A stretch of 64,000 bases of DNA, taken from a virus. Positions 19,817-63,683 of the stretch are shown here, piece by piece. The stretch is from IMG/VR virus record IMGVR_UViG_3300012964_000003, positions 1 through 64,000 of that record. One strand, given 5' to 3'. The notes beneath the pieces are model-generated. The model searched no databases, was not told the origin of the DNA, and saw nothing but the letters and a program-made list of their open reading frames with translations. Every line of letters starts with the position of its first letter. The stretch's first letter is position 1. A program made the translations under genes and the position numbers.

Positions 19817-19817
19817 G

Positions 19818-46225: not shown

Positions 46226-49207
46226 ATGGGCAAGTACGACTTCTTGACTGACTACACAGCGCAGATTTCTTCAGACACAGGCTTCTTCGACTGCAACAAC
46301 GTCGGCTATGCCATGGGCGGGCCTCTGTGGCGAGACATCTATGGCATGTCGGCTGGCTTGCGCGGTCTGAGTGATGCCGACAGGCACCATTGTCTGACGA
46401 TGCTTGATGCTGTTGGTGTGGGGTGGGAGCGGGTTGGAGCCATCTGGCAGGAGATAGACGAGGATGTCCCCGGTCCCCCGTTTGAATATGACCCAAATAA
46501 TGTTCTTACCAAGTCTGGTAGTCAATTCTCTGTCTCTGGAATGCCAACAGAGACATCCTACTTCCAGTACGACATGGGTGAAGATGGCTCCATCAACGGT
46601 ATCAGTATGGATTTCGCCATTCGTCGCGACACAGAGCTAACACAGAGCGGCCCGGTCATCTCAATTCGGGCGACATCGGGCATTCCTAGCGAGGATGGAG
46701 CAATCAACATTGCCCTGGCGGGTGCTTACGATTACACAGACCCAAAACTCAAGCTATGGGTGACTGGTGGCGGACCCACGCAGTACTGGGAAGATGCCAC
46801 TTGGGGTGTGGAGTACTATATCACGTTACACAGAGATGCGGACGCTGATTCGGTCACAGTGTTTGTCTATTCAGATGTCGCCAGAACGAACTTGCTAGCA
46901 ACACTGGTGGCGACTGGCGCCTATGGACACAGTTATCAGTATGTGCAACCCTTGGTGGCTGGCGCAGACCTGGAGATGGAGGCACACACACACTTCGATG
47001 TCATCGCAAGCTATCGCGACTGGACGGCCTTTGACACTTGTGTGAATGACGTTCTGAACTATGACCAAGAGCCCATCATTCACCTTGGAACCTATGCACC
47101 CTGGGCAAATGGTCAGCCTGCGGGGTCTGGGTGGTGGGTTCCTACCGGTGCCCCTTACTGGAAGCAATGGGTCTCTGATGTTGTCGCGCATTGCGACACT
47201 ACATGGCCGGGTAAGGTCAAGTACTACGAGATGTGGAACGAACCTAACTGGACCAACTTCTGGTGGAACGTCACTCTGGATGCCACGGGTTGGCCTGCCA
47301 ACACAGGCGAATTTGTCTCTGGCTATTGTGACCTTCTGATTGAGGGGTACGCTGGCGTAAAGCAAACTAACCCTTCTGGGCAGGTACTTGCCTTTGTTGT
47401 TGACCGCTGCGATGAAGGTTTCCTGATGGACTGCTATACCTATCTGTCAGGGAAACCGGGATATGAGGCATCCGGTCATTTCTTCGACTATGTCTGTGTC
47501 CATCCATACTGTGACAACCGTGCTCCGGACAACAACACAACTGACTACATCTGGGACAGCATTTTCAACGGCACGTCCACAGCAGCCGTTATCAACCGAA
47601 ACTTTGCCGGCATGCCCAACATGCGCCAAATCATGGTTGACCGTGGTGATAGCACTAAGCACATGATGATTACTGAGTTTGGATGGCGCAGCTCACCTTA
47701 CTTTGTGGGTGACACCGAATATGTAGGAGAGACGCTTCAGGCCCAGTACTTGGCCAGGGCCTATGACATTGCGCGAACCTGGACTTGGCTGGACTGCATG
47801 ATGTGGTATGGCTTTATGAATGTCCCATCGGAGGGAGACCCATCAGAAGAGCCGTACTCACTCATCCATTACGATTGGACTCCGAAACCGGCATATGCAG
47901 CCTACAACTTCGCTTCTCAAGGCGGCAGCATTGTCTCTATCATGGACCGAGAGAATGGCCAGGGTGTAGAGATTGCTCCGCCGACCATTGTGCCTGTTAC
48001 TACTGGGTCTATTCGAACAGAGGGTACTCGCCGCGTACGCACAAAGTACGACAATTCGACTGTGACCATCCCCATCTACATCGAGACCTTCTCTGGGCCG
48101 CTGATGGTCGACCTGATTGCCGACCTCATTGCCGCGACCAAGACGGATTTCGACTTCATCTTCAAGCCAGATGGTGGAAGTCAAGCTCTGACCTATCAGG
48201 GTCTTGCCTTCTCACCCGACCTGCCCCCATTCAACTGGCAGACTTGGGTGACAACAGAGGGATTCTGCGGTCTTGAGATTCCTCTGGACTTCGAAATCTA
48301 TCCCTTTGGTCTTGATACCGTTGTCGACTGGACAGAAGGATGGAGCGGTGCGCAACCTGAGACACACCACGTTCTCGATATTCCGGGTGATACTGATGCC
48401 CTCAGCGTCCTGACTCTTCGCCCTGGCTCTTCGGAATATGCCAACATCTTTGCCATCGGACGGCGAAGAGAGTACTCTCCCAACTTTGAGGGTGTGATTG
48501 ACCTTGGTAGTGCGGGGTCAGGAACCTATGATGCTGGTTCTTTGGGAGGCTACTTCCTTGAGGTTCCAGTTAGCTATTCCTCAGGCGGACCAACTTACCA
48601 GCAGCTTCTTTCCTTTGATTTGCCGATTGCTGACTACAGAGGCAGCTATAGGGTCTTTTCACGATGCCGAGCAGACTTGGTTGATGGTCGGTCGCTCAGC
48701 CTTCAGACACCGGCAAGTCTTGCAGAATACTCGGCTCCGATGGGTCTCAAGGGAGACGATGTCTGGAATTGGCTCGACCTTGGCGCCATCACAATTCCAG
48801 AGGTACTTGTTCCTGAGTGGCAGACAGACTACGACTTCAAGTTGAGCGTCTGGGTAGAGGGTGGAGCAAGTTCGGGACAGGTTGACTTCGATTTCATCGT
48901 CGTTCTACCAACAGACGGCGGAATAGCCTTCTTGGACACAGGATACGGCAGCAATGCTTCTGGGGCGCTTCTAGTGGACAGCATGTCGCGCATACCAGGA
49001 GTGTATCTAAGCAACAATCCTCCGGTTGTGACATTTGATGAGCCGGCAATTGTTGCGCACCCATTCTGGCCTATTCTCTTGTCTCCAGAAGGTAACAACA
49101 TTGTCACAATCACTATCTGGAGACCGGCAATTGGCAGCGAAGATGACCAGGTTCGTGCAGGAAAGTTTGGGCGTAGCCATCGGCCAAGGTATCTGTATGC
49201 ACGATGA
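46226..49207 (+). CDS. tail protein carrying a GH5-type glycoside hydrolase domain
   Basis: 993 aa. YYEMWNEPNW (the NEP acid/base motif) and MMITEFGW (the ITEFG nucleophile motif) are hallmarks of GH5. Confidence 0.6.
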   Translation: MGKYDFLTDYTAQISSDTGFFDCNNVGYAMGGPLWRDIYGMSAGLRGLSDADRHHCLTMLDAVGVGWERVGAIWQEIDEDVPGPPFEYDPNNVLTKSGSQFSVSGMPTETSYFQYDMGEDGSINGISMDFAIRRDTELTQSGPVISIRATSGIPSEDGAINIALAGAYDYTDPKLKLWVTGGGPTQYWEDATWGVEYYITLHRDADADSVTVFVYSDVARTNLLATLVATGAYGHSYQYVQPLVAGADLEMEAHTHFDVIASYRDWTAFDTCVNDVLNYDQEPIIHLGTYAPWANGQPAGSGWWVPTGAPYWKQWVSDVVAHCDTTWPGKVKYYEMWNEPNWTNFWWNVTLDATGWPANTGEFVSGYCDLLIEGYAGVKQTNPSGQVLAFVVDRCDEGFLMDCYTYLSGKPGYEASGHFFDYVCVHPYCDNRAPDNNTTDYIWDSIFNGTSTAAVINRNFAGMPNMRQIMVDRGDSTKHMMITEFGWRSSPYFVGDTEYVGETLQAQYLARAYDIARTWTWLDCMMWYGFMNVPSEGDPSEEPYSLIHYDWTPKPAYAAYNFASQGGSIVSIMDRENGQGVEIAPPTIVPVTTGSIRTEGTRRVRTKYDNSTVTIPIYIETFSGPLMVDLIADLIAATKTDFDFIFKPDGGSQALTYQGLAFSPDLPPFNWQTWVTTEGFCGLEIPLDFEIYPFGLDTVVDWTEGWSGAQPETHHVLDIPGDTDALSVLTLRPGSSEYANIFAIGRRREYSPNFEGVIDLGSAGSGTYDAGSLGGYFLEVPVSYSSGGPTYQQLLSFDLPIADYRGSYRVFSRCRADLVDGRSLSLQTPASLAEYSAPMGLKGDDVWNWLDLGAITIPEVLVPEWQTDYDFKLSVWVEGGASSGQVDFDFIVVLPTDGGIAFLDTGYGSNASGALLVDSMSRIPGVYLSNNPPVVTFDEPAIVAHPFWPILLSPEGNNIVTITIWRPAIGSEDDQVRAGKFGRSHRPRYLYAR

Positions 49208-51510
49208 ACGCTGACCTCCAAGTAGTTGCTCATGACAGATTGGGACGTGAGCACGACATCACTCAGCGCATAGAAGGTTTGAGATTCTCCGGGGGCAGCC
49301 CCGGAGGTTGCGCCGACTGTTCCTTTGCCTGCAAAGCACCTCTAGACCGAGACCCACTCACCTGGGCTAAGGTCTTCAATCGTGTTGACATCTACGACGT
49401 CAAGACAATGGATTGCATTCGGTCCTACAACATTCGGGAGCCCGTCCCGTCTGTGTCGGACGATGAGATGCTCTCTGTCACCGCAGTCGGTCCTCTGCAT
49501 GATGTTGGCGTTCGTCACCGAATCCGCAAAACCTACAAGGACTCGGACACCCAGAACGCCAAGATTGCCCCTGGACCAACCACAAATGCGATGGCACAGG
49601 AGAAGTTCAACATCTCCAACGACAACCGAATCATGATGCAGATTCAGGATGGCACCGTCTACAAGGTGGGTGACAAGGGGTGGGTTCGCTGGGCGCTAGC
49701 TGGTGGAAACAATATCAAGCGTCTGAAGTTCAGCGGACACTCAAACTTTGGCCCCCAGATGAAGGCATACGTCAACACGTCTGCTGATAGGACGTTGTTT
49801 ACAACTTCTGCCACCGGAGACCACAACTTCTCCTATGACTCCCTTGACCCATTCTTCAGTGATGGCTTTGACACCGGTGGTTTGGAGATTGAATGGGCAA
49901 TCGTCAGTGGTGACTGGAATGTCTATGACTACAAACTTGTGGTATCCGGAGTCCCAGGAACCATCATCGACCAGTACGAGCCTGAATTGGCCGACTACTC
50001 GGTCTCCGTTGCCGTGTCAGGGTGCAATTGGGCTTCTGGCTTTGCTGGTCTAGTTGGTCGGCAGATTGATGCCGACAATCGGTACGAGACATTCCAAGAT
50101 GATGGGGCCGTCTCTCTGTTCAAGAGGGTCTCTGGAGCTCCAACCCAACTCGGTGCCAGCTACACTCACACGCCTGTAGCCAATGAAGTTGTCACTCTCT
50201 ACATGAAGGGTGACCAAATCAGCGTTCAGCTGAATGGGACAACCATCATCGGTCCGGTAACTGACACGGCGTTTGCCTCAGCCGGTGTAGGTGGTCTCCG
50301 TGGCGGCTATGACGCCACATTTGATGACTTCAAGATGACCTACACCAGTTCCATTCTCGACTGTGAGCATATCAACTTCTACTTCTACACTCAGACGCAG
50401 CATACAGGCGACAACACCTATCTCATGTATGTGCAGTTCGACAGCATCGTTCTGTATGGCTTTGATGGCGAAGCCTATCCCTATGCCCTGATGCTGGACA
50501 TCTTGAATGCCGCATCCGGGGAAGTCTCAGCTGACACCAGTCAGGTTCAGGTAATCGGAGCAAGTACGGCATACGCATTCCCCACCTTTGATGTTCCCGA
50601 ACCAACAACCATGGCTGAAGTTCAGGAGAGAGCCAACGCTGTTACCAGGTGGGACTATGGGTTTGATGGTCTGCGACGCCTCTACTATCGTCCTTCTTCT
50701 TGGTATTCCTCAGTCATGTACACATGCTATCTGTCGCTGGGAGCCACCTACACACCAGCTCCTACCGCAGACGGTCTGTTCAGTGATGTGCATGTCAAGT
50801 ACAATCCGGCAAGCTCAGTGGCCTGGTACAAGGATGCTGTCTACTTTGACCTTCACTCTGATTGTAAGGAACTCGACGCGGCAGGGTTGATTGCCGAGGA
50901 CCTCATCACAATAGAAAGCACATCACCGACAGATGCTTCTGCTGCCGCCGCCTACAACAATGCAGACAGCACGGGCGACAAGGTGGGCGGAACCCTGACA
51001 CTCAAGGCAGGCCAGGTTTTCAGAGGGAAGGGGCCTGTCGTCAATGGACTGATACCGTTGGCCCCCATCGACCCATGGCTTTTGAAAGAGGGGCACAGCA
51101 TTCGAATTGTGGATAGCCCGCTAGACGACACCTTCGGTCCCATTACGAACGCCAGGATTGTCCAACGAATCAACTTCGCTGAATGGAACGACGAAGAACA
51201 GGAGATGGTTCTAACTCTGGATGCTGCGGACCTTCGGACTCTTGAAGGTTGGACAGAACGCATGACTCTACGTCTCGAACCGCATCCGGCACGTCCTGCG
51301 GTCAGCAATCTCATCTGGTGTAGGTATCTAAAGCGCAAAGAGACCCGAGGCCAGCATCGCATCTGTCTGCGGCGTGCGGTCTCCAAGTACTGGAGAACCT
51401 GGTACCATCAGAAGCGATGGCGATGGATTACAGTGGCCGCTTACAACAAATGGGTGAAGCGCAAGCGCAAATGGGAGGCCAAGAATCCAGGCAAGACCTA
51501 CCCCTACTAA
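49204..51510 (+). CDS. tail fiber or baseplate protein (putative)
   Basis: 768 aa following the GH5 tail protein. Confidence 0.5.
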   Translation: MNADLQVVAHDRLGREHDITQRIEGLRFSGGSPGGCADCSFACKAPLDRDPLTWAKVFNRVDIYDVKTMDCIRSYNIREPVPSVSDDEMLSVTAVGPLHDVGVRHRIRKTYKDSDTQNAKIAPGPTTNAMAQEKFNISNDNRIMMQIQDGTVYKVGDKGWVRWALAGGNNIKRLKFSGHSNFGPQMKAYVNTSADRTLFTTSATGDHNFSYDSLDPFFSDGFDTGGLEIEWAIVSGDWNVYDYKLVVSGVPGTIIDQYEPELADYSVSVAVSGCNWASGFAGLVGRQIDADNRYETFQDDGAVSLFKRVSGAPTQLGASYTHTPVANEVVTLYMKGDQISVQLNGTTIIGPVTDTAFASAGVGGLRGGYDATFDDFKMTYTSSILDCEHINFYFYTQTQHTGDNTYLMYVQFDSIVLYGFDGEAYPYALMLDILNAASGEVSADTSQVQVIGASTAYAFPTFDVPEPTTMAEVQERANAVTRWDYGFDGLRRLYYRPSSWYSSVMYTCYLSLGATYTPAPTADGLFSDVHVKYNPASSVAWYKDAVYFDLHSDCKELDAAGLIAEDLITIESTSPTDASAAAAYNNADSTGDKVGGTLTLKAGQVFRGKGPVVNGLIPLAPIDPWLLKEGHSIRIVDSPLDDTFGPITNARIVQRINFAEWNDEEQEMVLTLDAADLRTLEGWTERMTLRLEPHPARPAVSNLIWCRYLKRKETRGQHRICLRRAVSKYWRTWYHQKRWRWITVAAYNKWVKRKRKWEAKNPGKTYPY

Positions 51511-51524
51511 GGAGGTCGCGCACA

Positions 51525-52679
51525 ATGAAGAATCCTCTTGGAACTGGGCCGTGTACACCTGGCTCTGGCCACCGGTGGAGGCTCCACAAGAACATCTCCT
51601 GCTTTGGCGGTTCAGCTGAGTGCCAGGGTGTTGCCGGTCCATATCCTGACACATGCACCATGAATCAGGACGGCCCCTACTACTTCGCCACCTGGCATAC
51701 AGCTTCAAACAAGTATGTGCCGCCTGAATTGAACCGTCTGAAGTTCGGAGACAAGCTCATCTTCCGCTACAAGGGCAGGTCCTGCATCGCCCTCTACGCC
51801 GACTACGGCCCCAATGAGCGCACAGGCCGATACCTGGACTTGGGCCAGAATGTGGCTAACTATCTCGGCTTGCCTGGCGTGGGCGATGTAGAGTGGGACT
51901 TTGTGGCGGATGGCGACCGGCTCTTGCCGGAAATCCCAAACCCGACTCAGGCCGACCTATTTGTTCAGCTCATGAAGATGGAAGTCGGAGACCCTTACGA
52001 CTGGGGCGGTGTGGCCAGCCCAGACGAGAGCGCGGACGAGCCGAATCCTGATTGCTCGGGCTTGGGAGTGGGCGCGTTGCGGTATGCGGGGGTTGACCTG
52101 CTGAAGCTCACAGGTGCCAATCGCCCCACGGCAGAGGTCTTCTACCACGCCCGTAGAGCCGTTCTCAAGGAGCCACAGCGAGTTGGCGACTATGCGGTCT
52201 TGCTCAACAGCAGTGGGCGGGCACATCACATCGTCTGGTACATCGGCAATCGTCAGTGGACTGAAGCGCCACGAACAGGTACCACGGTCCGCTATCTTGA
52301 CAGCGCGGAGGTTCACAAGAGAGGATTCATCGTGTGTAAGGCTCCATGGGACCTGGGCCTCTTGACTGGAGCAGCACCACCTATGGTTGTTTGCCGAGTG
52401 GGACCCGTGACTGCTCGATTTGGTCGGTTCTCTTGGCGCAACATTCTGTGGCAGGCCAAACAAGGCCAGAAACTGGCCAATGCTCCTGTGTGGGGTGCCA
52501 AGGTCAGACGCAAGTATGTGCGCATGTGGGGCATTCTGCCTCTCTACTACTACACCGTCTATGGCTGGGGGCAGGCCTCTCTTGCTCGCTCCTATGGTGC
52601 AGCTGTGAATGGCTGGAAGGCTGCCGACATGTGGGACAAGATGCAGGCCAAGAACCTAGTTCGGCTGGTCGAGGTGTAG
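51525..52679 (+). CDS. endolysin with an RlpA-like double-psi beta-barrel domain plus an NlpC/P60 domain
   Basis: Start MKNPLGTGP after AAGGAGG. N-domain YFATWHTA...KGRSCIALYADYGPN. C-domain NPDCSGLGVGALRYAGV. Followed by a holin-like gene. Confidence 0.6.
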   Translation: MKNPLGTGPCTPGSGHRWRLHKNISCFGGSAECQGVAGPYPDTCTMNQDGPYYFATWHTASNKYVPPELNRLKFGDKLIFRYKGRSCIALYADYGPNERTGRYLDLGQNVANYLGLPGVGDVEWDFVADGDRLLPEIPNPTQADLFVQLMKMEVGDPYDWGGVASPDESADEPNPDCSGLGVGALRYAGVDLLKLTGANRPTAEVFYHARRAVLKEPQRVGDYAVLLNSSGRAHHIVWYIGNRQWTEAPRTGTTVRYLDSAEVHKRGFIVCKAPWDLGLLTGAAPPMVVCRVGPVTARFGRFSWRNILWQAKQGQKLANAPVWGAKVRRKYVRMWGILPLYYYTVYGWGQASLARSYGAAVNGWKAADMWDKMQAKNLVRLVEV

Positions 52680-52689
52680 GAAGGAGGGA

Positions 52690-52944
52690 ATGATGAGTGC
52701 CTATCTCAAAGACGCCATTGAGCGAGTGCTGGCCACATTTGTGGTTGCCATGATGGGTGTTCTCACGGTTGCAGCTCTTCCATGGCTCAAGGAACAACTG
52801 GAACTGATAGCCAAGGGCCAATTCACATGGAAGATGCTACTCGCCACCGCCATTGTGGCCGGAGCCATTGCCGCCTGGGATGTTGTCAAGGTCTGGTTGG
52901 CTCGGTACATTGGCAACAAGAACTCGGCAAGTCTTTTGAAGTGA
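52690..52944 (+). CDS. holin (putative)
   Basis: 84 aa, two predicted TM helices, immediately after the endolysin. Confidence 0.55.
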   Translation: MMSAYLKDAIERVLATFVVAMMGVLTVAALPWLKEQLELIAKGQFTWKMLLATAIVAGAIAAWDVVKVWLARYIGNKNSASLLK

Positions 52945-52997
52945 CGTCTTTTGAAGTGACCCACAGCCGGACCGCCATCCGGCACCTCTCTGCCGCG

Positions 52998-53033
52998 AGC
53001 GCCCCGCCCCCAGGTGGGGCGCTGTTTCTATAT
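52998..53033 (+). terminator. intrinsic terminator between convergent holin and methyltransferase genes
   Basis: AGCGCCCC-N10-GGGGCGCT followed by GTTTCTATAT. The stop of the minus-strand gene overlaps the U-tract. Confidence 0.5.
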
Positions 53034-53561
53034 GGGCTTGTTACTTGCTACATTGAGGCTGAACTTGTGGGTTGACCAGTCCTTCAGTGTATGGTCAACT
53101 TCATATGGGTCGTAGCGCCGGATGTTCACAAACCCGGCTGTAGTCATCAGATGCTTCATATAGGCAAAGTCAAAGATGCCGTGATGATGGTTGTGCTCGT
53201 CATCGCGTCCGTCTTCAAACCCGCCAACAAGAGGGTCAATGATGATTTGCTGCCACCACGCCTCGCCCCTCATTGCTGCATCAAGATACTTGCGTGCCAA
53301 GTATGAGAAGTCGGGCACTGAGAGTCGGCACAAACCTCCGGGCATCAGGATGCCGAGCCAGTGCTTGAGAGTTGGAATCTGGTCCGCACGTGGTATATGC
53401 TCGAACACATGGCAGGCGTATATCTCCTGTACGGTGTTGGATTCGGCGATGGCCCCCAGATTTCTGATGTCGCAGATGATGACACGAGGGTCGTCCGAGA
53501 CAAGGTCTATGTTGGTGTAGTCCTCGAGAATCTTCTTGCCGCATCCCAGATGGAGCCTCAT
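53028..53561 (-). CDS. class I SAM-dependent methyltransferase
   Basis: MRLHLGCGKKILEDYTNIDL (motif I) and a downstream acidic motif. Confidence 0.6.
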   Translation of the reverse strand: MRLHLGCGKKILEDYTNIDLVSDDPRVIICDIRNLGAIAESNTVQEIYACHVFEHIPRADQIPTLKHWLGILMPGGLCRLSVPDFSYLARKYLDAAMRGEAWWQQIIIDPLVGGFEDGRDDEHNHHHGIFDFAYMKHLMTTAGFVNIRRYDPYEVDHTLKDWSTHKFSLNVASNKPI

Positions 53562-54169
53562 CGCGAGGTGAGTCTCTCATAGACCTTCTTGCTAAGTTCG
53601 TCCTGAAACACACGGTCTATGTGAACGTCGTCTTCGTCTAGCATGAGGTCCATCGGAGATACAACCCTCACTCCTTGTGCCTGTAGCGCCTGTATGAAGG
53701 CTTCGCGCGCCCGCGCTCGCTCCCAGTGTGCGCCTTCTGTCCATCGTGTGCCGTCTGCAGACACAGGTGGCGGGGCCAGTGCCCACACATCGTATCCAAA
53801 GTCTCGCTCAATCTCTTCTATCACCCTGGCATAGTTCAAAGCCGAAGCCCATGCATGATAGATGGGGTCGTGTAGCGAGAGGTGAGATTCTTTGACGATG
53901 TGTGCTCGGCAGTCAATCTCTCCATAGGAAAGCAGAACGGTTGACCCTGTTGGAACGGTTGCAAGCGCCCTAAAGAGCCATTTTCGGCCACCAGATTTGG
54001 AGTCAGGATTGACCAGCCCATAGGCAGTAGGAGACCGCTTGGCACTGTCAGTTGTCCAGATGGCTCGGAACTGACCGCGCTCTTGCCACTCTCCCGGCTT
54101 CAAGTCTGTGAAGAATTGGGCATGGCTATCGCCAATGACGTATATCATCGGACAAGGTCCTTCATCCAC
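53558..54169 (-). CDS. SGNH/GDSL-type hydrolase
   Basis: N-terminal IYVIGDSHAQFF (GDS motif). Confidence 0.55.
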   Translation of the reverse strand: MDEGPCPMIYVIGDSHAQFFTDLKPGEWQERGQFRAIWTTDSAKRSPTAYGLVNPDSKSGGRKWLFRALATVPTGSTVLLSYGEIDCRAHIVKESHLSLHDPIYHAWASALNYARVIEEIERDFGYDVWALAPPPVSADGTRWTEGAHWERARAREAFIQALQAQGVRVVSPMDLMLDEDDVHIDRVFQDELSKKVYERLTSR

Positions 54170-55107
54170 CTAACCGTCCGCTCAATTCCTTGGGCCAGAG
54201 GAACAGTGGAGGCGTGCTGTAAGTCGCGTTGGGCCTTGGTCACGTCCACTTCCTTGTGCAGAGTCGTTCGCGGTTCTGCATCCTTGTAAAGGACCCCCAG
54301 CGATACATCATCGATGCCCACTGAAGCGAGAATCAGGTCCGAGAGTTCCTTCATGGTTACTCGCTCAGTGCCTGCTATGTTGTAGACCTCTCCCGGGATG
54401 AAGTTGTCCGTGATGTTGGCCAACGTACGAACGGTGTCCTCGACGTAGCTGTGAGTTCGTGAATGGCCGAGATAGACCGTGTATGGGATGCCCTTGAGGG
54501 CGTGATGGATGAATCTGGGTACAGCCCCCCGATAAGGATGGTAGACCTCACCTGGGCCGTAGGTGTTGAACAGACGAACTCGAACAGTTGATGTATCGCT
54601 GTTGAGCGCCTGAAGTTCGTTAACCCATTTGGTGATGGCATACTCATTCAGGTGGTGTATGGCGTGAGTCTCTGGCACTGTCTCAACCATGGTTCCGGCC
54701 CAGTCGCCATAGACCTCAGAGGAGGAGAAGATGACGACTTGGCTGGCGTATTGACCGGCAACTGAGAGAACATTCCGTGTACCAACCACATTGGTGCGCC
54801 AAAGATTCTCATAGTACATCTCTCCGTTGTGCCGGCCGAACTCTGCTGCCAGATGGTAGACGGTCTCTGGACAGGACCATCTGAATAGTCTCTCAACTTG
54901 TCGGTACTCGCCAACGTCACAGCGATGCATGTGCAGATGGTTGAGAAGGTCGGAGGCGAACACATCGTGTCCGCGCCCGCTCAACTCTCTCAGCAGGTGC
55001 TGGCCAATGTGTCCCGCTGCGCCAGTCACAAGAATTCGGGAGGGCCGCATAGTGCGCATCTCACTCATTCCGCCCCCAATCTCTCTCCTCATTTGCCCGC
55101 CAACCAC
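54145..55107 (-). CDS. NAD-dependent epimerase/dehydratase
   Basis: ILVTGAAGHIGQHLL (GxxGxxG) and YAITK (the YxxxK catalytic pair). Confidence 0.75.
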   Translation of the reverse strand: MVGGQMRREIGGGMSEMRTMRPSRILVTGAAGHIGQHLLRELSGRGHDVFASDLLNHLHMHRCDVGEYRQVERLFRWSCPETVYHLAAEFGRHNGEMYYENLWRTNVVGTRNVLSVAGQYASQVVIFSSSEVYGDWAGTMVETVPETHAIHHLNEYAITKWVNELQALNSDTSTVRVRLFNTYGPGEVYHPYRGAVPRFIHHALKGIPYTVYLGHSRTHSYVEDTVRTLANITDNFIPGEVYNIAGTERVTMKELSDLILASVGIDDVSLGVLYKDAEPRTTLHKEVDVTKAQRDLQHASTVPLAQGIERTVRWMKDLVR

Positions 55108-55825
55108 CTACGTTTGCTTTCTGCCAGAAGATGCCTTCATTCTGCTTACCTTGCTGGCCAGGACGGTTATAGTGGTACTGGTGAAGAACTGTTGCGTCTA
55201 GCCAACACACCGGCACCTGATGTACGGCCAAGCGCCGTATCCAGTCGTTGTCCTCCCAGGCCACGCCCATCCTGAAGTCCTCATCAAAACCGCCCATCTC
55301 CACATAGAGGGCCTTGGGCATGACGGCCCACCAGTGGAATGGGCGCGGGTTGTAGTCGGGATGCGCGTACCAGGCGTCTTCACCTTCCGCTGAGGCTGCC
55401 CTGTCATGGAAGGTCATGTTCTGCAAGATGGCATTGATGTAGTTGGGACTGCGAGGATTCAGGGCATTGATAAGCATCTGTGTCTCGTGAGAGACCGAGT
55501 AGGCTCTCGCGATTGCGTAGTCGGGCGTGCCATCTGGCAGCTTGAGATTCGGTGAGATGGGCAGACATTCTGGGTTGCTGAGAATGATGGTGTCGCCTTC
55601 AGCAGCACGGACACCGACATTGAAGGGTACACACGGATTGGACCCTGGCCGGTTGATTGTGATGCACTTGATGTTGAGTTCAGGCAAGTCTTGCAGTGCT
55701 GGTGGTTTGCTTGACTTGTCATCAACGATGATGAACTCACCCTCAAATCCGAGATTGTCATATGCCCAGAGCGTGTTGGTCAGAACTTCTGGTCGATTGA
55801 AGTAGGGCATGATGACCGACATCAT
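55061..55825 (-). CDS. glycosyltransferase family 2
   Basis: VIMPYFNRPEVL and IIVDDKS motifs. Confidence 0.6.
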   Translation of the reverse strand: MMSVIMPYFNRPEVLTNTLWAYDNLGFEGEFIIVDDKSSKPPALQDLPELNIKCITINRPGSNPCVPFNVGVRAAEGDTIILSNPECLPISPNLKLPDGTPDYAIARAYSVSHETQMLINALNPRSPNYINAILQNMTFHDRAASAEGEDAWYAHPDYNPRPFHWWAVMPKALYVEMGGFDEDFRMGVAWEDNDWIRRLAVHQVPVCWLDATVLHQYHYNRPGQQGKQNEGIFWQKANVGGWRANEERDWGRNE

Positions 55826-57195
55826 TTGGTGCCACCCATTCCCATATCAAAGTCTCCGAGAGCGGGCAAGAATTCGACCTTCTCAAACCCAACCTCTTCC
55901 ATCAATACTTCAAGCGTATCTGGGCTATAGGTTGAAAGATGTGCATCCCACATGTGCATCTGCCCGCCCATGTAATTGAGCTGCAGGTCCTCCCAGGTCT
56001 TGCACTTCACCCAGTTGGCAATGTTGGGAAGATGAAGTTCCAGGGTCCCGCCAGGCCGTAGGACACGATAGAACTCGCCCAGAACCAATTTGACCTTCCG
56101 CCAAGGTACATGTTCAAGGAAGTGGCTGCTGTACAGCATGTCCCACTCACCCTCTTCCATTGGCAATGGTTCTTTGACCACGTCATGAACAATCTCGATG
56201 TCAGGAAGGTCCTGAACATCTAGATGAACAAATCCCGGTAGCGGTAGAACTCCAGCTCCAATCTCGAGAGCCTTCTTGTCGTAGGGTTGCCAGTAGATTG
56301 GCATGCCGGGTCGCCCCTCCACCAAAGAAGGACCCGGCGTCTCAATCTTGAAAGGCCTCTTCTTGCCGAGGTACTCGTCATAATAGCGCCTGAACAGAAT
56401 CATGTTGGCATTGAACCATAGGCGCTTGCGTTTGGTATACTCGGATGTTGAAGTGCCGTAGCATCCATCGTCATGACCAAGATGGCGAGCTTCCTTGTCG
56501 GGGATGTAGGCATTGTGTAGACCCGCGACCTCTGCGCGCGCGCCATAGTCTGAGTCCTCACCGCCATACCATCGATAGTCTTCACTGAAGAATCCCAGGA
56601 AGTCAGTAGTTCTGCGTGGCAGAACCCAGACTCCGGCGATGTTGCCCGGACACTTTATCTCAATCTTCACGCCATCAAGCGTGACGGTCTCATAGCGACG
56701 ACCTTCAGCGTTGACTGAGCACATTGCGATGTCAGGCACAGAGAGGACGCGCATACAATCCGCCAGCCATCCTTCAGGCAGCCACAAGTCCGGGTCCAGC
56801 ATGACAATTGGGTCGCCGGATGAGAGCATGAGAACTTGGTTTCGGGCAGGAGCCACTCCCAGATTACGCGGATTCCGGAGTACCCAAGCGCCAACACCCT
56901 CACACCACTCCTTCACTCGGTCATCCGTGGACCCATTGTCGATAACCACCCATTCCCAAGGCCATTCTCTGAACTCAGGAGTGACTTCCTGAAGTCGTTT
57001 GAGTGTCTCAAGCAGAAGTTCATACCGGTCATGAACGATGACAGCAAGGGTTGCTAGAGCAGGCTTCTCGTCTGGTTCATAGTGACACTTGCTGTCATAG
57101 CTCATGTGGCCTATCTTCAATCGTGCGAGACGCTTCTTGTACTCCAGGTCAGGAGTGCCGGGAGGTGCTATCAGAACGGCTTCATCAGACAGCAT
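55822..57195 (-). CDS. bifunctional glycosyltransferase family 2 plus methyltransferase-domain protein
   Basis: N-half VIVHDRYELL...WVVIDNGSTDD (GT2). C-half GAGVLPLPGFVHLDV...LRPGGTLELHLPN (methyltransferase fold). Confidence 0.55.
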   Translation of the reverse strand: MLSDEAVLIAPPGTPDLEYKKRLARLKIGHMSYDSKCHYEPDEKPALATLAVIVHDRYELLLETLKRLQEVTPEFREWPWEWVVIDNGSTDDRVKEWCEGVGAWVLRNPRNLGVAPARNQVLMLSSGDPIVMLDPDLWLPEGWLADCMRVLSVPDIAMCSVNAEGRRYETVTLDGVKIEIKCPGNIAGVWVLPRRTTDFLGFFSEDYRWYGGEDSDYGARAEVAGLHNAYIPDKEARHLGHDDGCYGTSTSEYTKRKRLWFNANMILFRRYYDEYLGKKRPFKIETPGPSLVEGRPGMPIYWQPYDKKALEIGAGVLPLPGFVHLDVQDLPDIEIVHDVVKEPLPMEEGEWDMLYSSHFLEHVPWRKVKLVLGEFYRVLRPGGTLELHLPNIANWVKCKTWEDLQLNYMGGQMHMWDAHLSTYSPDTLEVLMEEVGFEKVEFLPALGDFDMGMGGTK

Positions 57196-57955
57196 TCATG
57201 CCTCCATCCAGTTTCGTCTGCCACTTTGCCATGAGGCGCTGGAAGTTGGCCTGGTAGTATCGAGCGGGATTCTGGTCTGGGTCCTTTTGGCATTCCTTGA
57301 TGGTCATGCTGTGGTAATGCATAAGAACAGCCTTCGGTTCGTAGATGATGCGCTGGCCAGTCTCGCGCACCTTCATGCAGAAGTCAATGTCCTCAAAGTT
57401 GGCCTGCATGTATCCATCATCCATCCCACCCACCCGATTCCAGACGGTGCGGTTAGTCAACATGCAGGCACCAGTCACGGCTGGCACCTCCATAGTTTGG
57501 CTAGCTTCGTCGATACGAGCCGGTAAGTGCATGTATCGGTGGTAGGGCAGCCAGTCCTTCTCTCTCTTCTGCCAATAGACCCCAGCGTGTTGCAGTTTGC
57601 CATTAGGCAGAACGAGCCTAGCTCCAACAATACCAACGCCCTTGGTAAAAGACCCTCGAAGAGCATCGAGCCATCCCTCTTGGGGGATGCAGTCGTTGTT
57701 AAGAAGACACACCGACCCGTATCGTGCGTACCCAACTCCGATGTTGCACCCAGTGGCGAACCCCTCATTGCGTACTTGGGGATACAGAGCTACATCATCC
57801 TGTTCCTTGAGCCATTCCAAGCTGCCGTCTGTGGAGTGATTGTCTACGACTACTATCTGGTAGTCTGTGGTATGCTTGCGAATGGCCTCGATGCATTGCT
57901 GGGTGTACGGAAGACCATTGAATGTCAGGATGACAATAGAGACACCGAAGGTCAT
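57185..57955 (-). CDS. glycosyltransferase family 2
   Basis: VSIVILTFNGLPYT and IVVVDNHSTDGS motifs. Confidence 0.7.
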   Translation of the reverse strand: MTFGVSIVILTFNGLPYTQQCIEAIRKHTTDYQIVVVDNHSTDGSLEWLKEQDDVALYPQVRNEGFATGCNIGVGYARYGSVCLLNNDCIPQEGWLDALRGSFTKGVGIVGARLVLPNGKLQHAGVYWQKREKDWLPYHRYMHLPARIDEASQTMEVPAVTGACMLTNRTVWNRVGGMDDGYMQANFEDIDFCMKVRETGQRIIYEPKAVLMHYHSMTIKECQKDPDQNPARYYQANFQRLMAKWQTKLDGGMNAV

Positions 57956-58505
57956 TTGTGCCTCAACTCCTCGATACCGTGCACAACGTCACTTTGTGAG
58001 GCCAGATAGTCAGCCTCTATCAACAAGTGGGCGTATAGACCGGCTGTCTCGAAAGTTCTGAATGGAGTCACTCCCCACCAGCTCATGTGATTCTCAACCG
58101 CCACGGCAGCCAGCTCCCAAACCTCTAACCAGGCCCCTTCATGTCCACCCATAAGTAGGTCTAAGAAGCTACGCATCTTGTGCGCTGCTAAGGCTGGATG
58201 GTCTGGCGTTGTCGTCTGCCAGTCTGGCATCCCCTTGAAGGTGTCATGGCAGACAGCCGCAAGTAAGAGCGTGTCCTTCTGCAGTGGATTCAGAGCATGC
58301 AAACGAGACAGATGCATGCTGATACGGGCCACTAAGAGTGTGTGTTCGACAAGAGTCTCGCCTGCGTGGTACTTGCCGGAGAAACTGGCTGGCGCCCTCC
58401 AGAACTCTTTGGGTGTGTCGGCTACCAAGAAGGCTTCCAGTTGTCCACGCAGACTTGGGTTTGAGATACCGACATCTGAGAGCCGGTTCAAGTCATCGCT
58501 CATGC
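57952..58505 (-). CDS. HD-domain phosphohydrolase
   Basis: Start MSDDLNRL after GAGGAGGAGAAGG. KYHAGETLVEHTL and AAVCHDTFK give an H...HD pattern. Confidence 0.55.
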
Positions 58506-58682
58506 CTTCTCCTCCTCGATACACTCGTCCACTGTCATCTGTCCGGATTCTTGCTTCATCAGTCCTCTCAACTGCATGCTGCGACACTTACCTGCAGCAT
58601 TGATGTGGACAACACCGTTCTTGCGACAACCTTGTGGCCGGTAGTGAAGACAGTGTACAACATCACAGTGCAAGTTCAGCAT
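58500..58682 (-). CDS. small Cys-rich protein, 60 aa, translationally coupled to the HD gene
   Basis: Its stop overlaps the HD start as ATGA. Confidence 0.35.
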   Translation of the reverse strand: MLNLHCDVVHCLHYRPQGCRKNGVVHINAAGKCRSMQLRGLMKQESGQMTVDECIEEEKA

Positions 58683-59193
58683 TCAAAGCCTCCTTGACCT
58701 TATTGGCGACATCTTCATCATTCTCAATGAGCCAGGCGATGGCATGGGCTTCCGCATCGAGAAAGTGTTCTGCCCGAGGACGAGGATTGAAACCGATGTA
58801 CCCCTTCTTGATAAGTTGATATGCGGTGCGCATTTGTGTTGGATGTCGCAGGATGACAGGAACACCGTGAAAGAGAAATAGATGCTGACAGAATCCTGCA
58901 AGTCTGACAGAATCAAGCAGTTCTGTGTTGAGTGCACGACCAGGATGCAAGACCGGTCGAACGTCCTCAACTATCACCGTAAGGTCCTTGTCCTTCAACA
59001 AGTCGGCCAAGTAGAACAGCATGACTCTGAGGTCTGCAGGACACAGCTCCTTACCCAGTACTGGGCAGGGCCTGTTCTCTAGATGCAGAGACAGGCCGGT
59101 CAACTTGCCGGGGTCCAACGCCAACAGTGCCTTCGAAGAGCGCGAGTTGCAGACTTGTTCCTGCAGGTCCGAGACGCTGCTCTCTTGGTTCAT
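58663..59193 (-). CDS. RuvC-like Holliday-junction resolvase (putative)
   Basis: ALLALDPGKLTGLSL (first catalytic Asp), TVIVEDV (Glu) and FLDAEAHAIAW (C-terminal D/H motif). The start is uncertain. The ORF overlaps the DnaE 3' end. Confidence 0.45.
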   Translation of the reverse strand: MNQESSVSDLQEQVCNSRSSKALLALDPGKLTGLSLHLENRPCPVLGKELCPADLRVMLFYLADLLKDKDLTVIVEDVRPVLHPGRALNTELLDSVRLAGFCQHLFLFHGVPVILRHPTQMRTAYQLIKKGYIGFNPRPRAEHFLDAEAHAIAWLIENDEDVANKVKEALNAELAL

Positions 59194-62116
59194 GTTTGGC
59201 TGACCAGTTGATGATTGATTTGACGCGCACACGGCGGAACCCCTCCTCCTTGATTCCTCTGACAAGATAGAGGTCGCCTTCCTCAAACCCCTCCCAGATG
59301 ATGCCTTTCACGCGTGGATACATCATTCGGTCAACCTTGCAGTGAATCATGCCAGTGTCGTCTTCCAGAAGAACATTTACCCACTGGTCAAGGTCAGGTC
59401 GGTAGGTCGGTTTGTCGCCCCAGTTCTTTGAATAGGCCAACTCATTCAGACTTCGAAGGTTGCGCTCCTTCACGAGTCCAACAATGGAGACCACGTGCTG
59501 GTGTCCATAGTCCAATTCGCCTATCTTGTGAGTGGCTGGACTGCTGTTTAGTCGGTCTGTGAAAGACTGCAACCCCATGAAGTCAGCCGTATCTTCTGTC
59601 TGGTCAAATGCCCCCGCCTTATTTAGCAACCCTCTGAGGCTGGGCGTAATACGAGGATTTGGGCTTTCTAAAGTCGTTGCCGCCTTCTCGCCAATACCCT
59701 TGAGAGACAGGAAGCCAGCTCTAAGTGCACCATCTTCAATTGTCCATTCTGCCCTTGACTTTCCCACCCTTACTGGCAGAATCTCGATGCCGGTGCGCAT
59801 ACATTCCCTGATTAGACCAACGTCACGTGGGTCTTGGACCAGGTTTGCCCAGTAGAACTCCAACGGATGATGAACCTTCAGCCACATGCACCAGTAGGCA
59901 AGAATGGCGTAGGACACGGAATGAGACCGGTTGAATGCCCATGAACCAAACGTACAGACGTTGTCCCAGATTGCCTTGGCTGTCTCCTCCGGCACTCCTT
60001 GTGATGTGGCACCCTTGACGAACTTGTTCCAGAAGCGATTGAACGCCTCAACGCCCTCCTTTTTGGAGATGTTCATTCGAATGAGAGCTGTGTCTTCCCA
60101 GGACATCAGCCCCACCTCACGCATAGTACGCATCACCTGTTCTTGGTAGAGCACTTGACCACGTGTATTTGCTGTGATTGCGTCTAGTGTAGGATGGACA
60201 GGCTCACTGTTCCCCGCCACATACTTTGTGGTAGCGCCACAATGAAGTGGTCCTGGACGAGACAGGGCATTGATGTCGATGAGTTGTTCGAAGTTCTGAA
60301 CATCCAACTGACGCGTCACCGACTGGGTAGACCCACCTTCCCATTGGAAGATGCCCTTGAACAGACCTTCGTTGAACCCAGCAAACACTTCTGGGTCGCT
60401 CAGGGGAAGCGCATAGAGGTCATAGATGCTCATGCCCAGCCGTTCTATGCAGCGATGAACAACTGACAGCGTTGAGATTCCCAGCACATCAATCTTCAGC
60501 ATGCCCAATGCTGCAGCATCCTTGTGGTTGATGCAGACTTGACCTTCTCTCAGGATGCTGGTGTAGTTGACGAGTGGCTCATTGCAAACAACCATGCCTG
60601 CTGCATGAACTGTCAGGCCTCGAATCTGCCCTTCAATTGCCGCTGCCCGTTTGAGCACCGGATACTCTTCCACTACTGCCTTGGCAGCCGGGAACTCTGC
60701 AAGGGTATCTTCGATGGTAAAGCTCGCTCGAGAATCACCACCGGACCGGAAGATGAGCACATTCTTGATGCGCGAGACCTTGTACCCTGGTATCTTCTCG
60801 ATTCGGGCGATATCATCAAGTGCATTCTTGCCTTTGAATGTGACATATGCGGACAGATTGGCCACACAGTCATGCCCAAATCGTTCACGCATGTATTGCT
60901 TGACCCGTTCACGGTACCGGTCTTCAAAGTCGACATCTACATCAGGCGGGTCTTCTCGGGTGATGTCGATGAATCTCTCAAATAGCAGGTCGTACTTCAT
61001 GGGGTCTACTTCTGTGATGCCCATCAGATAGCAGACCAAAGACCCTGCGGCGGAACCTCTTGCGGGGCCAACCAGGATATTGTTGTGCTTAGCCCAGTTG
61101 ATGATGTCGGCCACAATGAGAAAGTAGTCAACATACCCCTTCTTGACGATGAGGTCGTATTCGTACACTACACGGTCTCGATAGGCATCTGCATCTGAAT
61201 TACCTGCGATGTCGCGATTGACCCATCCTTCATTGATGAGTTGTCTCATGAGCGCCTGTCTCTCATCGTCAGATGCGTCTGAGAATCTCAGTTCTGGAGC
61301 CATGTCAAGACGCACATTACACCGAGCGGCAACCCCTTCTGTTGCCAGGATGGCTTCTGTCCAGTCATGATATGGATGATTCTTGGCAAACCACAGCGAC
61401 AACTCTTCTTCTGTTGACTGATGCATAGGTTGGAAGGAACCAAGGTTGGCCAATGGTATGTTTTGCCTGATTGCAACCAGAGTTCCTTGCATCTCTTCAT
61501 CTTCTGGCCGAGGATAGTGAACATCACCTGTGGCCAACAATGGCAAACCAAGGTCTTGCGAGAAACGGAGCATGGCCTTGTTGACGGTGCGGCTATCTTC
61601 TAGACTGAATGGCTGCACTTCTAGAAACAGCCTGTCCTTGAAGATGGACTGCAGACCAATCAGGATGTTCTTGGCTCGTTCTTGCTGGTCGTTTCTGATG
61701 AGGGTCGGTACAAGGCCATAGAGGCAGCCGGTCATGGCAATGAGACCCTCCGAGTGGTCTCCAAGGTCCTCCAGGTCAATGGTTGGACGATAGTAGAAGT
61801 GACCTTCTTGGTTAGCCAGAGTCATCAGGCTAGTGAGATTTCTGTACCCCTGATTGTCCATGGCTAGCAGTGTCATGTGCCCCTTACGGCGTTCATTGTT
61901 GGCAACTGACTCTACACAGTAGGCCTCGCAGCCGAAAATAGGCTTGATGTCCGCAGCACTGCATGCCTTGTTGAATCTGACGTGGCCACATATGTTGCCA
62001 TGGTCAGTAAGAGCAATGGCAGACTGACCAAGGTCCTTGGCTCTTGCTGCTATCTGTTCCGGTGTGCCAAAGCCATCAAGAAACGAGAATGTGCTGTGTA
62101 CGTGTAGATGAATCAT
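59051..62116 (-). CDS. dnaE: DNA polymerase III alpha subunit (DnaE-type), phage-encoded
   Basis: 1021 aa. N-terminal PHP domain MIHLHVHSTFSFLDGFGTPEQIA, polymerase core, and a C-terminal QLALF beta-clamp-binding-type motif. Confidence 0.9.
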   Translation of the reverse strand: MIHLHVHSTFSFLDGFGTPEQIAARAKDLGQSAIALTDHGNICGHVRFNKACSAADIKPIFGCEAYCVESVANNERRKGHMTLLAMDNQGYRNLTSLMTLANQEGHFYYRPTIDLEDLGDHSEGLIAMTGCLYGLVPTLIRNDQQERAKNILIGLQSIFKDRLFLEVQPFSLEDSRTVNKAMLRFSQDLGLPLLATGDVHYPRPEDEEMQGTLVAIRQNIPLANLGSFQPMHQSTEEELSLWFAKNHPYHDWTEAILATEGVAARCNVRLDMAPELRFSDASDDERQALMRQLINEGWVNRDIAGNSDADAYRDRVVYEYDLIVKKGYVDYFLIVADIINWAKHNNILVGPARGSAAGSLVCYLMGITEVDPMKYDLLFERFIDITREDPPDVDVDFEDRYRERVKQYMRERFGHDCVANLSAYVTFKGKNALDDIARIEKIPGYKVSRIKNVLIFRSGGDSRASFTIEDTLAEFPAAKAVVEEYPVLKRAAAIEGQIRGLTVHAAGMVVCNEPLVNYTSILREGQVCINHKDAAALGMLKIDVLGISTLSVVHRCIERLGMSIYDLYALPLSDPEVFAGFNEGLFKGIFQWEGGSTQSVTRQLDVQNFEQLIDINALSRPGPLHCGATTKYVAGNSEPVHPTLDAITANTRGQVLYQEQVMRTMREVGLMSWEDTALIRMNISKKEGVEAFNRFWNKFVKGATSQGVPEETAKAIWDNVCTFGSWAFNRSHSVSYAILAYWCMWLKVHHPLEFYWANLVQDPRDVGLIRECMRTGIEILPVRVGKSRAEWTIEDGALRAGFLSLKGIGEKAATTLESPNPRITPSLRGLLNKAGAFDQTEDTADFMGLQSFTDRLNSSPATHKIGELDYGHQHVVSIVGLVKERNLRSLNELAYSKNWGDKPTYRPDLDQWVNVLLEDDTGMIHCKVDRMMYPRVKGIIWEGFEEGDLYLVRGIKEEGFRRVRVKSIINWSAKHEPREQRLGPAGTSLQLALFEGTVGVGPRQVDRPVSASREQALPSTG

Positions 62117-63420: not shown

Positions 63421-63683
63421 GGGGTGTCACCGTGAGCCCAGGCGAGCCAGTCGCCATCCAGCGGTGCCGTTCGACCTATCTCTCGGCACGCTGCTCCGGC
63501 ATCTGCGAGCCTAACGGCATCGAGGACTTCCGCCAGCCGCTCACACGCCTGCTTCTCGGCTGCCAGGGCGGTAGTCAGCACCTCCACGTCCGCGAACGCC
63601 TTGAGCACGATGCGCCGCGTGGTGAGGGGGAGCTTCATCAGGGCGCGGCGGTCCATGTCGGTGGGGACGGTTCGGTCGCTCAT
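63417..63683 (-). CDS. hypothetical protein, 88 aa
   Basis: ORF track. Coupled to its neighbours. Confidence 0.45.
   Translation of the reverse strand: MSDRTVPTDMDRRALMKLPLTTRRIVLKAFADVEVLTTALAAEKQACERLAEVLDAVRLADAGAACREIGRTAPLDGDWLAWAHGDTP

Follow-up and report, generated by a model that had tools for sequence, protein, structure and literature searches.

A six-gene cassette of predicted soluble enzymes in an uncultured phage, with the gene content for a short methylated glycan

What do the enzymes encoded at positions 53028–57955 of the IMG/VR virus record IMGVR_UViG_3300012964_000003 make, and on which molecule is their product placed? The window analyzed here is the stretch from position 1 to 64,000 of that record, that is, 64 kb of a genome of ~70–72 kb from an uncultured phage that is known from metagenome sequence alone. 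A sequence-only reading of the same DNA had described seven glycosylation-type genes next to the lysis genes. The region carries six consecutive open reading frames (ORFs) on the minus strand with seven domains, and the gene calls of the source contigs give the same six; the supposed seventh gene is a methyltransferase domain that forms one ORF with the middle glycosyltransferase. The coordinates and the domain inventory of the earlier reading, with three GT2 glycosyltransferase domains, two methyltransferase domains, one short-chain dehydrogenase/reductase (SDR) and one SGNH protein, agree with Pfam, and the SGNH member is upheld by additional evidence. In the order of transcription the six genes, with lengths in amino acids (aa), are as follows.

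57185–57955, minus strand: GT2-A, first gene of the cassette, a predicted soluble GT-A transferase of 256 aa (Pfam Glycos_transf_2, 71.4 bits)
55822–57195, minus strand: GT2-MT, a fusion of a GT2 glycosyltransferase and an S-adenosylmethionine (SAM) methyltransferase, 457 aa (Pfam GT2, 57.6 bits; Methyltransf_23, 39.2 bits)
55061–55825, minus strand: GT2-C, a divergent GT-A transferase of 254 aa (Pfam GT2, 28.4 bits)
54145–55050, minus strand: extended SDR of 301 aa (Pfam Epimerase/GDP_Man_Dehyd, Epimerase at 127.9 bits), with alternative starts at 55059 or 55107
53558–54148, minus strand: SGNH/GDSL-fold esterase or acyltransferase of 196 aa (Pfam SGNH, 21.3 bits, below the cutoff of 27)
53028–53561, minus strand: small class I SAM methyltransferase of 177 aa, last gene of the operon (Pfam Methyltransf_23, 27.5 bits, cutoff 27)

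The genes had been said to form a tightly overlapping minus-strand operon, convergent with the holin gene and next to the lysis cassette, and both descriptions are accurate. The six genes are joined by four overlaps of 4–11 nucleotides (nt) and one gap of 10 nt: GT2-A and GT2-MT overlap by 11 nt, GT2-MT and GT2-C by 4 nt, the gap lies between GT2-C and the SDR gene, and the SDR/SGNH (ATGA) and SGNH/small methyltransferase junctions are overlaps of 4 nt each. The features on either side are listed below.

51525–52679, plus strand: NlpC/P60 endolysin (Pfam NLPC_P60)
52693–52944, plus strand: holin (PHROG holin; hydropathy 2.25)
52998–53023, no strand assigned: GC-rich hairpin with an 11-bp stem containing 9 GC pairs (terminator scan and sequence)
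57952–58503, minus strand: HD-domain protein of 183 aa (Pfam HD, 28.9 bits; PHROG 5889)
59051–62116: DnaE, in the same operon as the HD gene and the cassette

The operon does not begin at 57955, because the HD gene overlaps GT2-A by 4 nt, an arrangement indicative of translational coupling, and itself comes after DnaE. The cassette is the distal end of a replication-gene operon and not a separate unit, and its coupling to the HD and DnaE genes implies expression in the lytic cycle. The HD gene lies within the same operon and outside the conserved cassette; by tblastn no HD homologue adjoins the cassette in L003 or L004, two further phage contigs that carry it (see below). At the opposite end, the hairpin sits in the 83-nt spacer between the convergent holin and small methyltransferase genes and, judging from its sequence, is likely the shared terminator of the holin and cassette genes.

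No transmembrane segment was detected in any of the six cassette proteins, whose maximum hydropathy over 19 residues is ≤1.5 compared with 2.25 for the holin, and all six are predicted to be soluble cytoplasmic enzymes. Neither the cluster nor the rest of the window yielded a flippase, polyprenyl-phosphate transferase, polymerase or ligase. The earlier proposal that the composition fits synthesis of a short methylated glycan stands as a biosynthetic reading, with three GT-A transferases, two sugar-type methyltransferases, a nucleotide-sugar SDR and an SGNH enzyme encoded side by side. The chemistry predicted from these domains is well supported: a small number of sugars would be added, with a pentose as a probable donor, up to two positions would be O-methylated, and an O-acyl group would be edited. 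The gene set is not a chance pattern, because conserved homologues exist for each ORF and other contigs carry the set as well.

All three GT2 proteins score above the gathering score of PF00535 (Glycos_transf_2, cutoff 23.3 bits) and have a DXD-type motif that is kept in their orthologues (NND, DPD and the variant NPE). In GT2-A the motif reads LLNNDC, and GGMDxGYxxANFEDxDF is conserved in its orthologues, which are 43–51% identical and are found in L003 and L004 as well as in the bacterial loci L009, L013 and L016. The fusion protein has its GT-A domain at approximately aa 45–285 and its methyltransferase domain at approximately aa 300–457, the C-terminal third. Only 7 close homologues of the fusion were found among 5.8 billion protein clusters, and the motifs MLDPD (DPD) and YGGEDSDYG of its glycosyltransferase domain, hereafter the large GT2, are invariant in the family. 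The AlphaFold2 (AF2) model of the large GT2 domain has predicted local distance difference test (pLDDT) values of 80–93, and its methyltransferase half, with a pLDDT below 50, is unreliable and was left uninterpreted. In a Foldseek search with the modeled large GT2 domain, the top 50 PDB matches are all polypeptide GalNAc-transferases (ppGalNAc-Ts; E of 1e-12 to 1e-10), and the fold search also matched giant-virus proteins named "glycosyltransferase and methyltransferase domain" (Catovirus). The orthologues of GT2-C (44–47%) occur in the phage contigs L003 and L004 only, with LTNPECLP (variant NPE) and GGFDEDFRxGVAWED as conserved motifs, and BLAST finds no similarity (E<10) between GT2-C and the small GT2 at the same position in bacterial-type loci. 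Sequence searches of the three GT2 proteins against the PDB gave generic GT-A matches only, and no NCBIfam equivalog scored above its cutoff, the best similarity for both GT2-A and the large GT2 being to MftF (85 bits against a cutoff of 280). Among the six proteins, the PHROG comparison returned a single weak, N-terminal GtrB-like match (E=2.9e-4).

The fourth enzyme had been called an epimerase, a label that the closest relatives do not favor. The best solved relative of the SDR is Mth373 (PDB 8W3U/9AR1), which matches over the full length with E=4e-95 and ~57% identity, followed by the human UDP-glucuronate decarboxylase UXS1 at E ~5e-20. The SDR contains the motifs GxxGxxG (TGAAGHIG), SSSEVYGD and YAITK, all of which align to Mth373, and its S-S-E-V-Y-G element aligns with STSEVYGD of human UXS1. 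The Glu in S-S-E-V-Y-G is characteristic of decarboxylases and dehydratases; GalE-type epimerases are not known to have it. The Arg, Asn and Lys that contact UDP-xylose in Mth373 are kept in the SDR, and the unusual second Tyr in the active site of Mth373, Tyr-73, is replaced by Phe (EFGRH compared with EYGRW). Mth373, from Methanothermobacter thermautotrophicus, was crystallized with UDP-xylose and assigned as a UDP-xylose synthase, with Tyr-73 proposed as a catalytic helper (PMC12820599). Its activity was deduced from a crystal soaked with UDP-glucuronate, the paper giving no enzyme assay, and the UDP-xylose ligand is, according to the authors, possibly a radiation product (PMC12820599). Because the activity of Mth373 rests on the crystal structure, the decarboxylase assignment is provisional for the phage enzyme as well as for Mth373. 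The SDR is closest to UDP-glucuronate decarboxylases/UDP-xylose synthases and is probably not a plain 4-epimerase; that it is specifically a UDP-glucuronate decarboxylase making UDP-xylose we put, from these alignments, at about an even chance. Orthologues with 50–60% identity are present in L003 and L004.

The SGNH call is upheld despite the sub-cutoff Pfam score, because the Pfam matches of homologues, the conserved blocks and the fold matches of the AF2 model all agree. A HMMER search yielded 190 distant homologues, and 28 of the 45 that were aligned pass the Lipase_GDSL_2 threshold. GDSH (block I), GEIDCR and DxxH (block V, DDVH) are nearly invariant in these 45. The AF2 model has a pLDDT of 83.8, and the top 50 PDB matches to this predicted structure are nearly all esterases, lipases and acyltransferases of the SGNH/GDSL family, including a Mycobacterium smegmatis acyltransferase, acetyl-xylan esterases and sialate O-acetylesterases, although the Foldseek matches are modest (E ~3e-4, template modeling score ~0.5). 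An SGNH-like orthologue (29%) is located 3' of the GT2-MT gene in L004. The small methyltransferase has LHLGCG as its motif I and is 27% identical to the methyltransferase domain of the fusion, the two being distant paralogues; its own orthologues are 35% identical in L003 and L004 and 48–55% identical in the bacterial-type loci L016 and L017.

To map the distribution of the cassette, orthologues were located by tblastn on the contigs of the fusion homologues, among them L003, L004, L008, L009, L013 and L016. The metagenomic phage contigs L003 and L004 both carry a set of five of the six genes, at 35–60% identity (GT2-A 43–45%, fusion 46–50%, GT2-C 44–47%, SDR 50–60%, small methyltransferase 35%). 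ERF, terminase, SPP1-type portal and SU10-type capsid genes are present in L003, and Rad52, HNH and RNA ligase genes and many small ORFs in L004. The cassette is conserved across three unrelated phages with differing virion genes. Both L003 and L004 also hold a UDP-GlcNAc 2-epimerase and a GT1/4 transferase, which the window cassette lacks, and the L003 copy sits just upstream of the terminase and head genes, which share its strand. A ParB_N plus N6/N4 DNA methyltransferase fusion is encoded a few genes upstream of the L003 cassette, at 4666–5883 of that contig, and has no equivalent in the window. The cassette was found in none of ~50,700 deposited phage genomes, and no close relative was found in IMG/VR. 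Searches by tblastn with GT2-MT, the SDR and GT2-A against phage genomes gave remote matches only (≤32% identity), the IMG/VR scan with GT2-MT gave no match and that with the family alignment only relatives at 24–29%, and none of 22 IMG/VR relatives of the DnaE (32–41% identity) carries the cassette.

Bacterial loci share the order GT2-A, GT1-or-4, large GT2 and small GT2, with a methyltransferase in addition, and their proteins are 49–51% (GT2-A), 43–53% (large GT2) and 48–55% (small methyltransferase) identical to those of the window. L013 is a contig of a Coriobacteriaceae metagenome-assembled genome and is chromosomal (SelB, ABC transporter, polyprenyl synthetase), with identities of 51% for GT2-A and 53% for the large GT2, and in L009 the cassette orthologues occur together with a Wzx-type flippase. 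In L016 and L008 the orthologues are accompanied by heptose-pathway genes and a methyltransferase (48% identical in L016, ~23% in L008), which suggests that the ancestral glycan contained heptose. The linked ADP-heptose genes in these two contigs are SIS, HAD and PfkB plus cytidylyltransferase, together with a GT9 heptosyltransferase. No counterpart of GT2-C or of the Mth373-like SDR was present in the bacterial loci compared. Judging from these relationships, three components, GT2-A, the large GT2 and the methyltransferase, are of bacterial ancestry, and the phage cassette looks like a captured bacterial surface-glycan module that was then re-tooled. The re-tooling, as it appears from the comparison of the sequences, would have fused a methyltransferase, swapped one transferase and added a dedicated enzyme for a donor sugar. 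The GC content of the cassette (0.54) is in line with that of its flanks (0.52–0.56) and gives no sign of a recent acquisition.

From this gene content we infer the donor sugars, the order of the reactions and the acceptor. Together the six genes would be a self-contained cassette for glycan assembly in the cytoplasm, expressed along with the phage replication genes. The SDR would convert a UDP-sugar of the host, most likely UDP-glucuronate, to a modified donor, most likely UDP-xylose, and the three soluble GT-A transferases would add about three sugars in sequence. GT2-C probably uses the product of the SDR, given that neither is found without the other and both are confined to the phage copies. 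The fused methyltransferase domain and the free methyltransferase would O-methylate the sugars, and the SGNH enzyme would add or remove an O-acyl group. As acceptor, a protein of the virion would be the most likely candidate, whether the capsid, the tail tube or some other structural protein that is exposed; it would receive its O-linked sugars in the cytoplasm, either ahead of assembly or while assembly proceeds.

The sequence-only reading had named virion proteins or host surface polysaccharide as the target, and both are kept here as leading readings, between which the evidence does not decide. O-Glycosylation of virion proteins is our best guess, a tentative one that falls somewhat short of an even chance. 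The mycobacteriophages Che8, Corndog and Myrna O-glycosylate the C termini of their capsid proteins and those of the tail tube with phage enzymes, according to the accounts of Freeman et al. 2023 in PMC11600133, PMC12363180 and PMC12619734. The solubility of the enzymes, their expression from a lytic operon, the absent export machinery and the proximity to head genes in L003 are all consistent with a virion acceptor. The ppGalNAc-T matches of the modeled large GT2 are counted in its favor, as is the consideration that a multi-enzyme pathway with its own donor synthesis exceeds the needs of receptor masking. The window capsid ends in ...YGSIVAT, with an extra terminal Thr relative to an 82%-identical relative (...YGSLVA), which is suggestive but weak; among other relatives the last residue is S, T, V or A, and divergence between the tail tubes is too great for such a comparison. 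Several observations weigh against a virion acceptor. The capsid (...IVAT) and tail tube (...SEFTTGA) are without the Gly/Asp-Ser end of all four Che8 and Corndog acceptors (...NKTGS and ...YSDGS in Che8, ...PLVGS and ...IKGDS in Corndog), no Ser/Thr-rich (mucin-like) tract occurs in any structural protein of the window, and the cassette has neither sequence homology to the Che8 and Corndog enzymes nor a homologue of the GT25-like gp110/gp38. The ppGalNAc-T matches do not establish a protein acceptor, because these enzymes are over-represented in the PDB and share the GT2/7/27 core, both of which may account for the matches, and because the large GT2 has DPD in place of DxH, the motif of GT27. 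The native acceptor of the bacterial-type enzymes, at least of two of the transferases, was probably a lipid-linked glycan, because orthologues with 43–55% identity lie in the same order in loci with a Wzx-type flippase (L009) and on a Coriobacteriaceae chromosome (L013). The same loci, with the polyprenyl synthetase neighbor in L013, lend weight to a remodeling of the host cell envelope, a reading not far behind the first that we consider possible but doubtful. Here the soluble enzymes would act at the inner face of the membrane on polyprenyl-linked intermediates of wall polysaccharide or teichoic type, and the initiating transferase, flippase and ligase of the host would be used to display an altered, methylated and possibly xylosylated surface glycan, which would block superinfection or keep progeny from adsorbing to debris. 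The window cassette is without the GT1/4 gene retained in L003, L004 and the bacterial loci, and may rely on host enzymes for that step; a glycoside-hydrolase-like (GHL15) protein among the structural genes suggests a glycan receptor; and an acceptor on the host side would explain easy transfer of the cassette between phages with unrelated capsids. The soluble prophage GT-A enzyme TarP, which rewrites wall teichoic acid without a flippase of its own, provides a precedent (PMC9650247). However, the surface-converting modules known so far are those of temperate phages, with expression from the prophage, whereas the present cassette lies in a lytic operon with DnaE and HD genes and no integrase or repressor was found among the genes of the 64-kb window of the ~70–72-kb genome. 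There is also no membrane protein among the six, the number of genes, donor synthesis included, far exceeds the single enzyme that usually suffices for receptor masking, and the bacterial loci contain nothing that corresponds to GT2-C or the SDR.

Two further products were weighed. In a hypermodification of the phage DNA, the GT-A enzymes would place one to three sugars on a hydroxylated pyrimidine and so shield the DNA from restriction and CRISPR nucleases. There are phage GT-A enzymes, relatives of transferases for lipopolysaccharide and teichoic acid, that decorate 5-hydroxymethylcytosine with mono- to trisaccharides (Pyle et al., bioRxiv 10.1101/2023.12.21.572611), phage DNA is known to contain pentosylated cytosines (PMC12838424 and PMC13326640), and the cluster shares a replication operon with DnaE and a putative HD phosphohydrolase. 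All pathways known require a C5-methyltransferase with a TET/5mYOX enzyme, or else a thymidylate-synthase homologue (Pyle et al.; PMC13326640), and sugar O-methyltransferases and SGNH enzymes are not among the cluster components described in the consulted text of these papers. By Pfam, no DNA C5-methyltransferase, TET-like dioxygenase or thymidylate-synthase (ThyA) homologue was found among the called genes at 1.1–63.6 kb of the window. The dCTPase and dNMP kinase that such pathways usually also need were not recognized in the window either, where a putative HD phosphohydrolase is directly upstream of the cassette. With no enzyme to supply the acceptor hydroxyl among the called genes, this explanation is highly improbable. 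The other product would be a soluble or lipid-bound methylated oligosaccharide or glycoconjugate that alters host physiology, such as a polymethylated storage-type glycan or a glycosylated small molecule, or the cassette would be a passenger without a role in the phage cycle. All of the enzymes are soluble, and the best NCBIfam similarity is to MftF, a small-molecule glycosyltransferase, albeit far below the cutoff. Conservation of the five-gene set in three unrelated phages, with catalytic motifs under purifying selection, instead indicates a function that benefits the phage; we know of no precedent in phages for a product of the methylated-oligosaccharide type, and we regard this explanation as distinctly improbable. 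A small remainder of the probability is assigned to none of the four readings.

The remainder of the window describes the phage that carries the cassette. Proteins identical to those of the window are encoded on contigs of 54,971, 70,310 and 72,295 bp from different samples, and the DNA has no nucleotide match among the ~50,700 deposited phage genomes (INPHARED); the best match of the DnaE, at 38% identity, is to Microbacterium phages. The virion gene set comprises a terminase, a Mu-type portal, a Mu gpT-type capsid protein, a tape measure and large tail proteins, and among the genes of the left arm are those for replication and recombination (SNF2 helicase, PD-(D/E)XK nuclease, AAA_24). Two left-arm proteins of 297 aa are not paralogues of each other. 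No tRNA genes were found in the window. The NlpC/P60 lysin and the holin, with no space for spanins, suggest a monoderm host, possibly an actinobacterial one; no spanin candidate was found 3' of the holin. The endolysin consists of the NlpC/P60 domain and an unassigned C-terminal region of ~100 aa. Structural genes of interest are listed below, where L040 denotes a 60.8-kb contig (GCA_003191745.1, QGNH01000472.1).

31670–32617: capsid protein, 82% identical to one on L040
33761–34054, plus strand: ORF of 97 aa in the head-tail region (precomputed Pect-lyase_RHGA_epim match)
34586–36574, plus strand: GHL15 (glycoside-hydrolase-like 15) protein of 662 aa, between the head-tail connector and tail genes (precomputed family match)
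36590–38860, plus strand: protein of 756 aa with 23% Ser+Thr and no family match, between the head-tail connector and tail genes
41691–42527: tail tube with a C-terminal Big_5 domain, only 24% identical to the tail tube of L040
43319–46225, plus strand: tape-measure protein (PhageMin_Tail plus a faint NlpC/P60 match)

The GHL15 protein and the 756-aa protein may be a glycanase and a fiber carried on the virion, and, if so, a glycan receptor on the host is implied. The genes between head and tail are DUF2341/Laminin_G_3 in L040 and GHL15 in the window phage. The 82% identity of the capsids, set against 24% for the tail tubes and the differing genes between them, indicates that the head and tail modules are mosaic. 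The GC content is 0.59–0.645 in part of the left (early, minus-strand) arm, at 10000–22000 of the window, and 0.51–0.55 around the tail, lysis, glycan and DnaE genes at 46000–62000; it climbs to 0.61 at 62–64 kb. Two independent assemblies, ENA k141_5203163 and Logan SRR6436091_6208380, both end at ~63.58–63.65 kb. The breaks in assembly and the rise in GC near 63580–64000 could mark a genome terminus, a repeat or a hypervariable spot.

Clusters of glycosyltransferase genes are common in phages, and their targets are known in a few cases, namely T-even and TET-linked glycosylation of DNA, surface conversion by gtr and TarP, and three mycobacteriophages with glycosylated virions. That a phage carries such genes is not very surprising; the concrete leads are the five-gene core, the SDR/GT2-C pair and the GT2-methyltransferase fusion. 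As an enzyme set the cassette is distinct; it is shared by three unrelated uncultured phages and can be traced to bacterial surface-glycan loci. If it glycosylates virions, virion glycosylation would extend beyond the mycobacteriophages, and the six genes would offer a compact toolkit for shielding phage particles with glycans or for the glyco-engineering of proteins. Should the cassette instead remodel the host wall during the lytic cycle, a phage with no sign of temperateness would be putting a multi-step pathway to an unusual use. Under either reading, the SDR/GT2-C pair is a candidate phage UDP-xylose synthase and xylosyltransferase. A broader scenario, which we consider unlikely as a whole, is that a mobile cassette derived in part from Wzx-dependent host loci coats unrelated phages of probably anaerobic Gram-positive hosts with a methylated xylose glycan that partly copies that of the host.

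When compared with known systems, the cassette is neither a gtr-type module nor a DNA-glycosylation cluster. Like gtrABC and TarP of Staphylococcus aureus, it consists of phage-encoded GT-A enzymes, which in those systems alter surface glycopolymers of the host, and TarP is likewise soluble and relies on host export machinery (PMC9650247). Those systems are temperate and single-step, and gtr is membrane-bound, whereas the lytic operon of the window encodes six predicted soluble enzymes, and lysogeny genes were not found in the window; no membrane segment in the six proteins corresponds to the membrane components of gtrABC (GtrA flippase, bactoprenol-linked GtrB with transmembrane segments, polytopic GtrC). 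The bacterial Wzx-type loci (L009, L013, L016 and L008) resemble the cassette in GT2-A, the large GT2 and the small methyltransferase (43–55%) and in the relative order of these genes. In contrast to these loci, the window has its methyltransferase fused to the large GT2, GT2-C in the place of the small GT2, and an added SDR and SGNH enzyme, and it has no GT1/4 gene and no flippase or other membrane component. The chlorovirus PBCV-1 encodes A064R, a protein with two glycosyltransferase domains and a methyltransferase domain, and a methylated, xylose-containing glycan is built on its major capsid protein in the cytoplasm without the membrane machinery of the host. PBCV-1 is a eukaryotic giant virus with N-linked glycans, unlike the window phage, and is likened to it by description only. 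The mycobacteriophages Che8 and Corndog offer a comparison among phages. In Che8, Pfam identifies gp108 as a fusion of GT2 and Methyltransf_24/TylF, followed by GT2-like and GT25-like enzymes, and in Corndog gp35–38 a TylF-type methyltransferase (gp35) is followed by three transferases, with gp38, like Che8 gp110, matching Glyco_transf_25. The GT25-like Che8 gp110 and Corndog gp38 are reported as the essential transferase in PMC12363180. Common to these phages and the window are a soluble phage operon of several glycosyltransferases with a sugar-type SAM methyltransferase, a GT2-methyltransferase fusion (Che8 gp108 and the 457-aa protein) and expression in the lytic cycle, and the hosts are actinobacterial in their case and probably Gram-positive monoderms in ours. 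The methyltransferases, however, belong to different subfamilies (Methyltransf_11/23 in the window, TylF/Methyltransf_24 in theirs), and no window protein matches GT25. BLASTP of the window against Che8 gp108–110 gave nothing better than E=0.012, with no homology to gp107–110 or to the Che8 capsid or tail tube. The window cassette adds a nucleotide-sugar SDR and an SGNH enzyme, and glycosylation by it is a prediction. Because it has no GT25-like transferase and its capsid and tail tube lack the C-terminal feature of the acceptors, the cassette is not a member of the Che8/Corndog family. By this comparison, the enzyme set of the window would be different from those of Che8, Corndog and Myrna and acquired independently of them.

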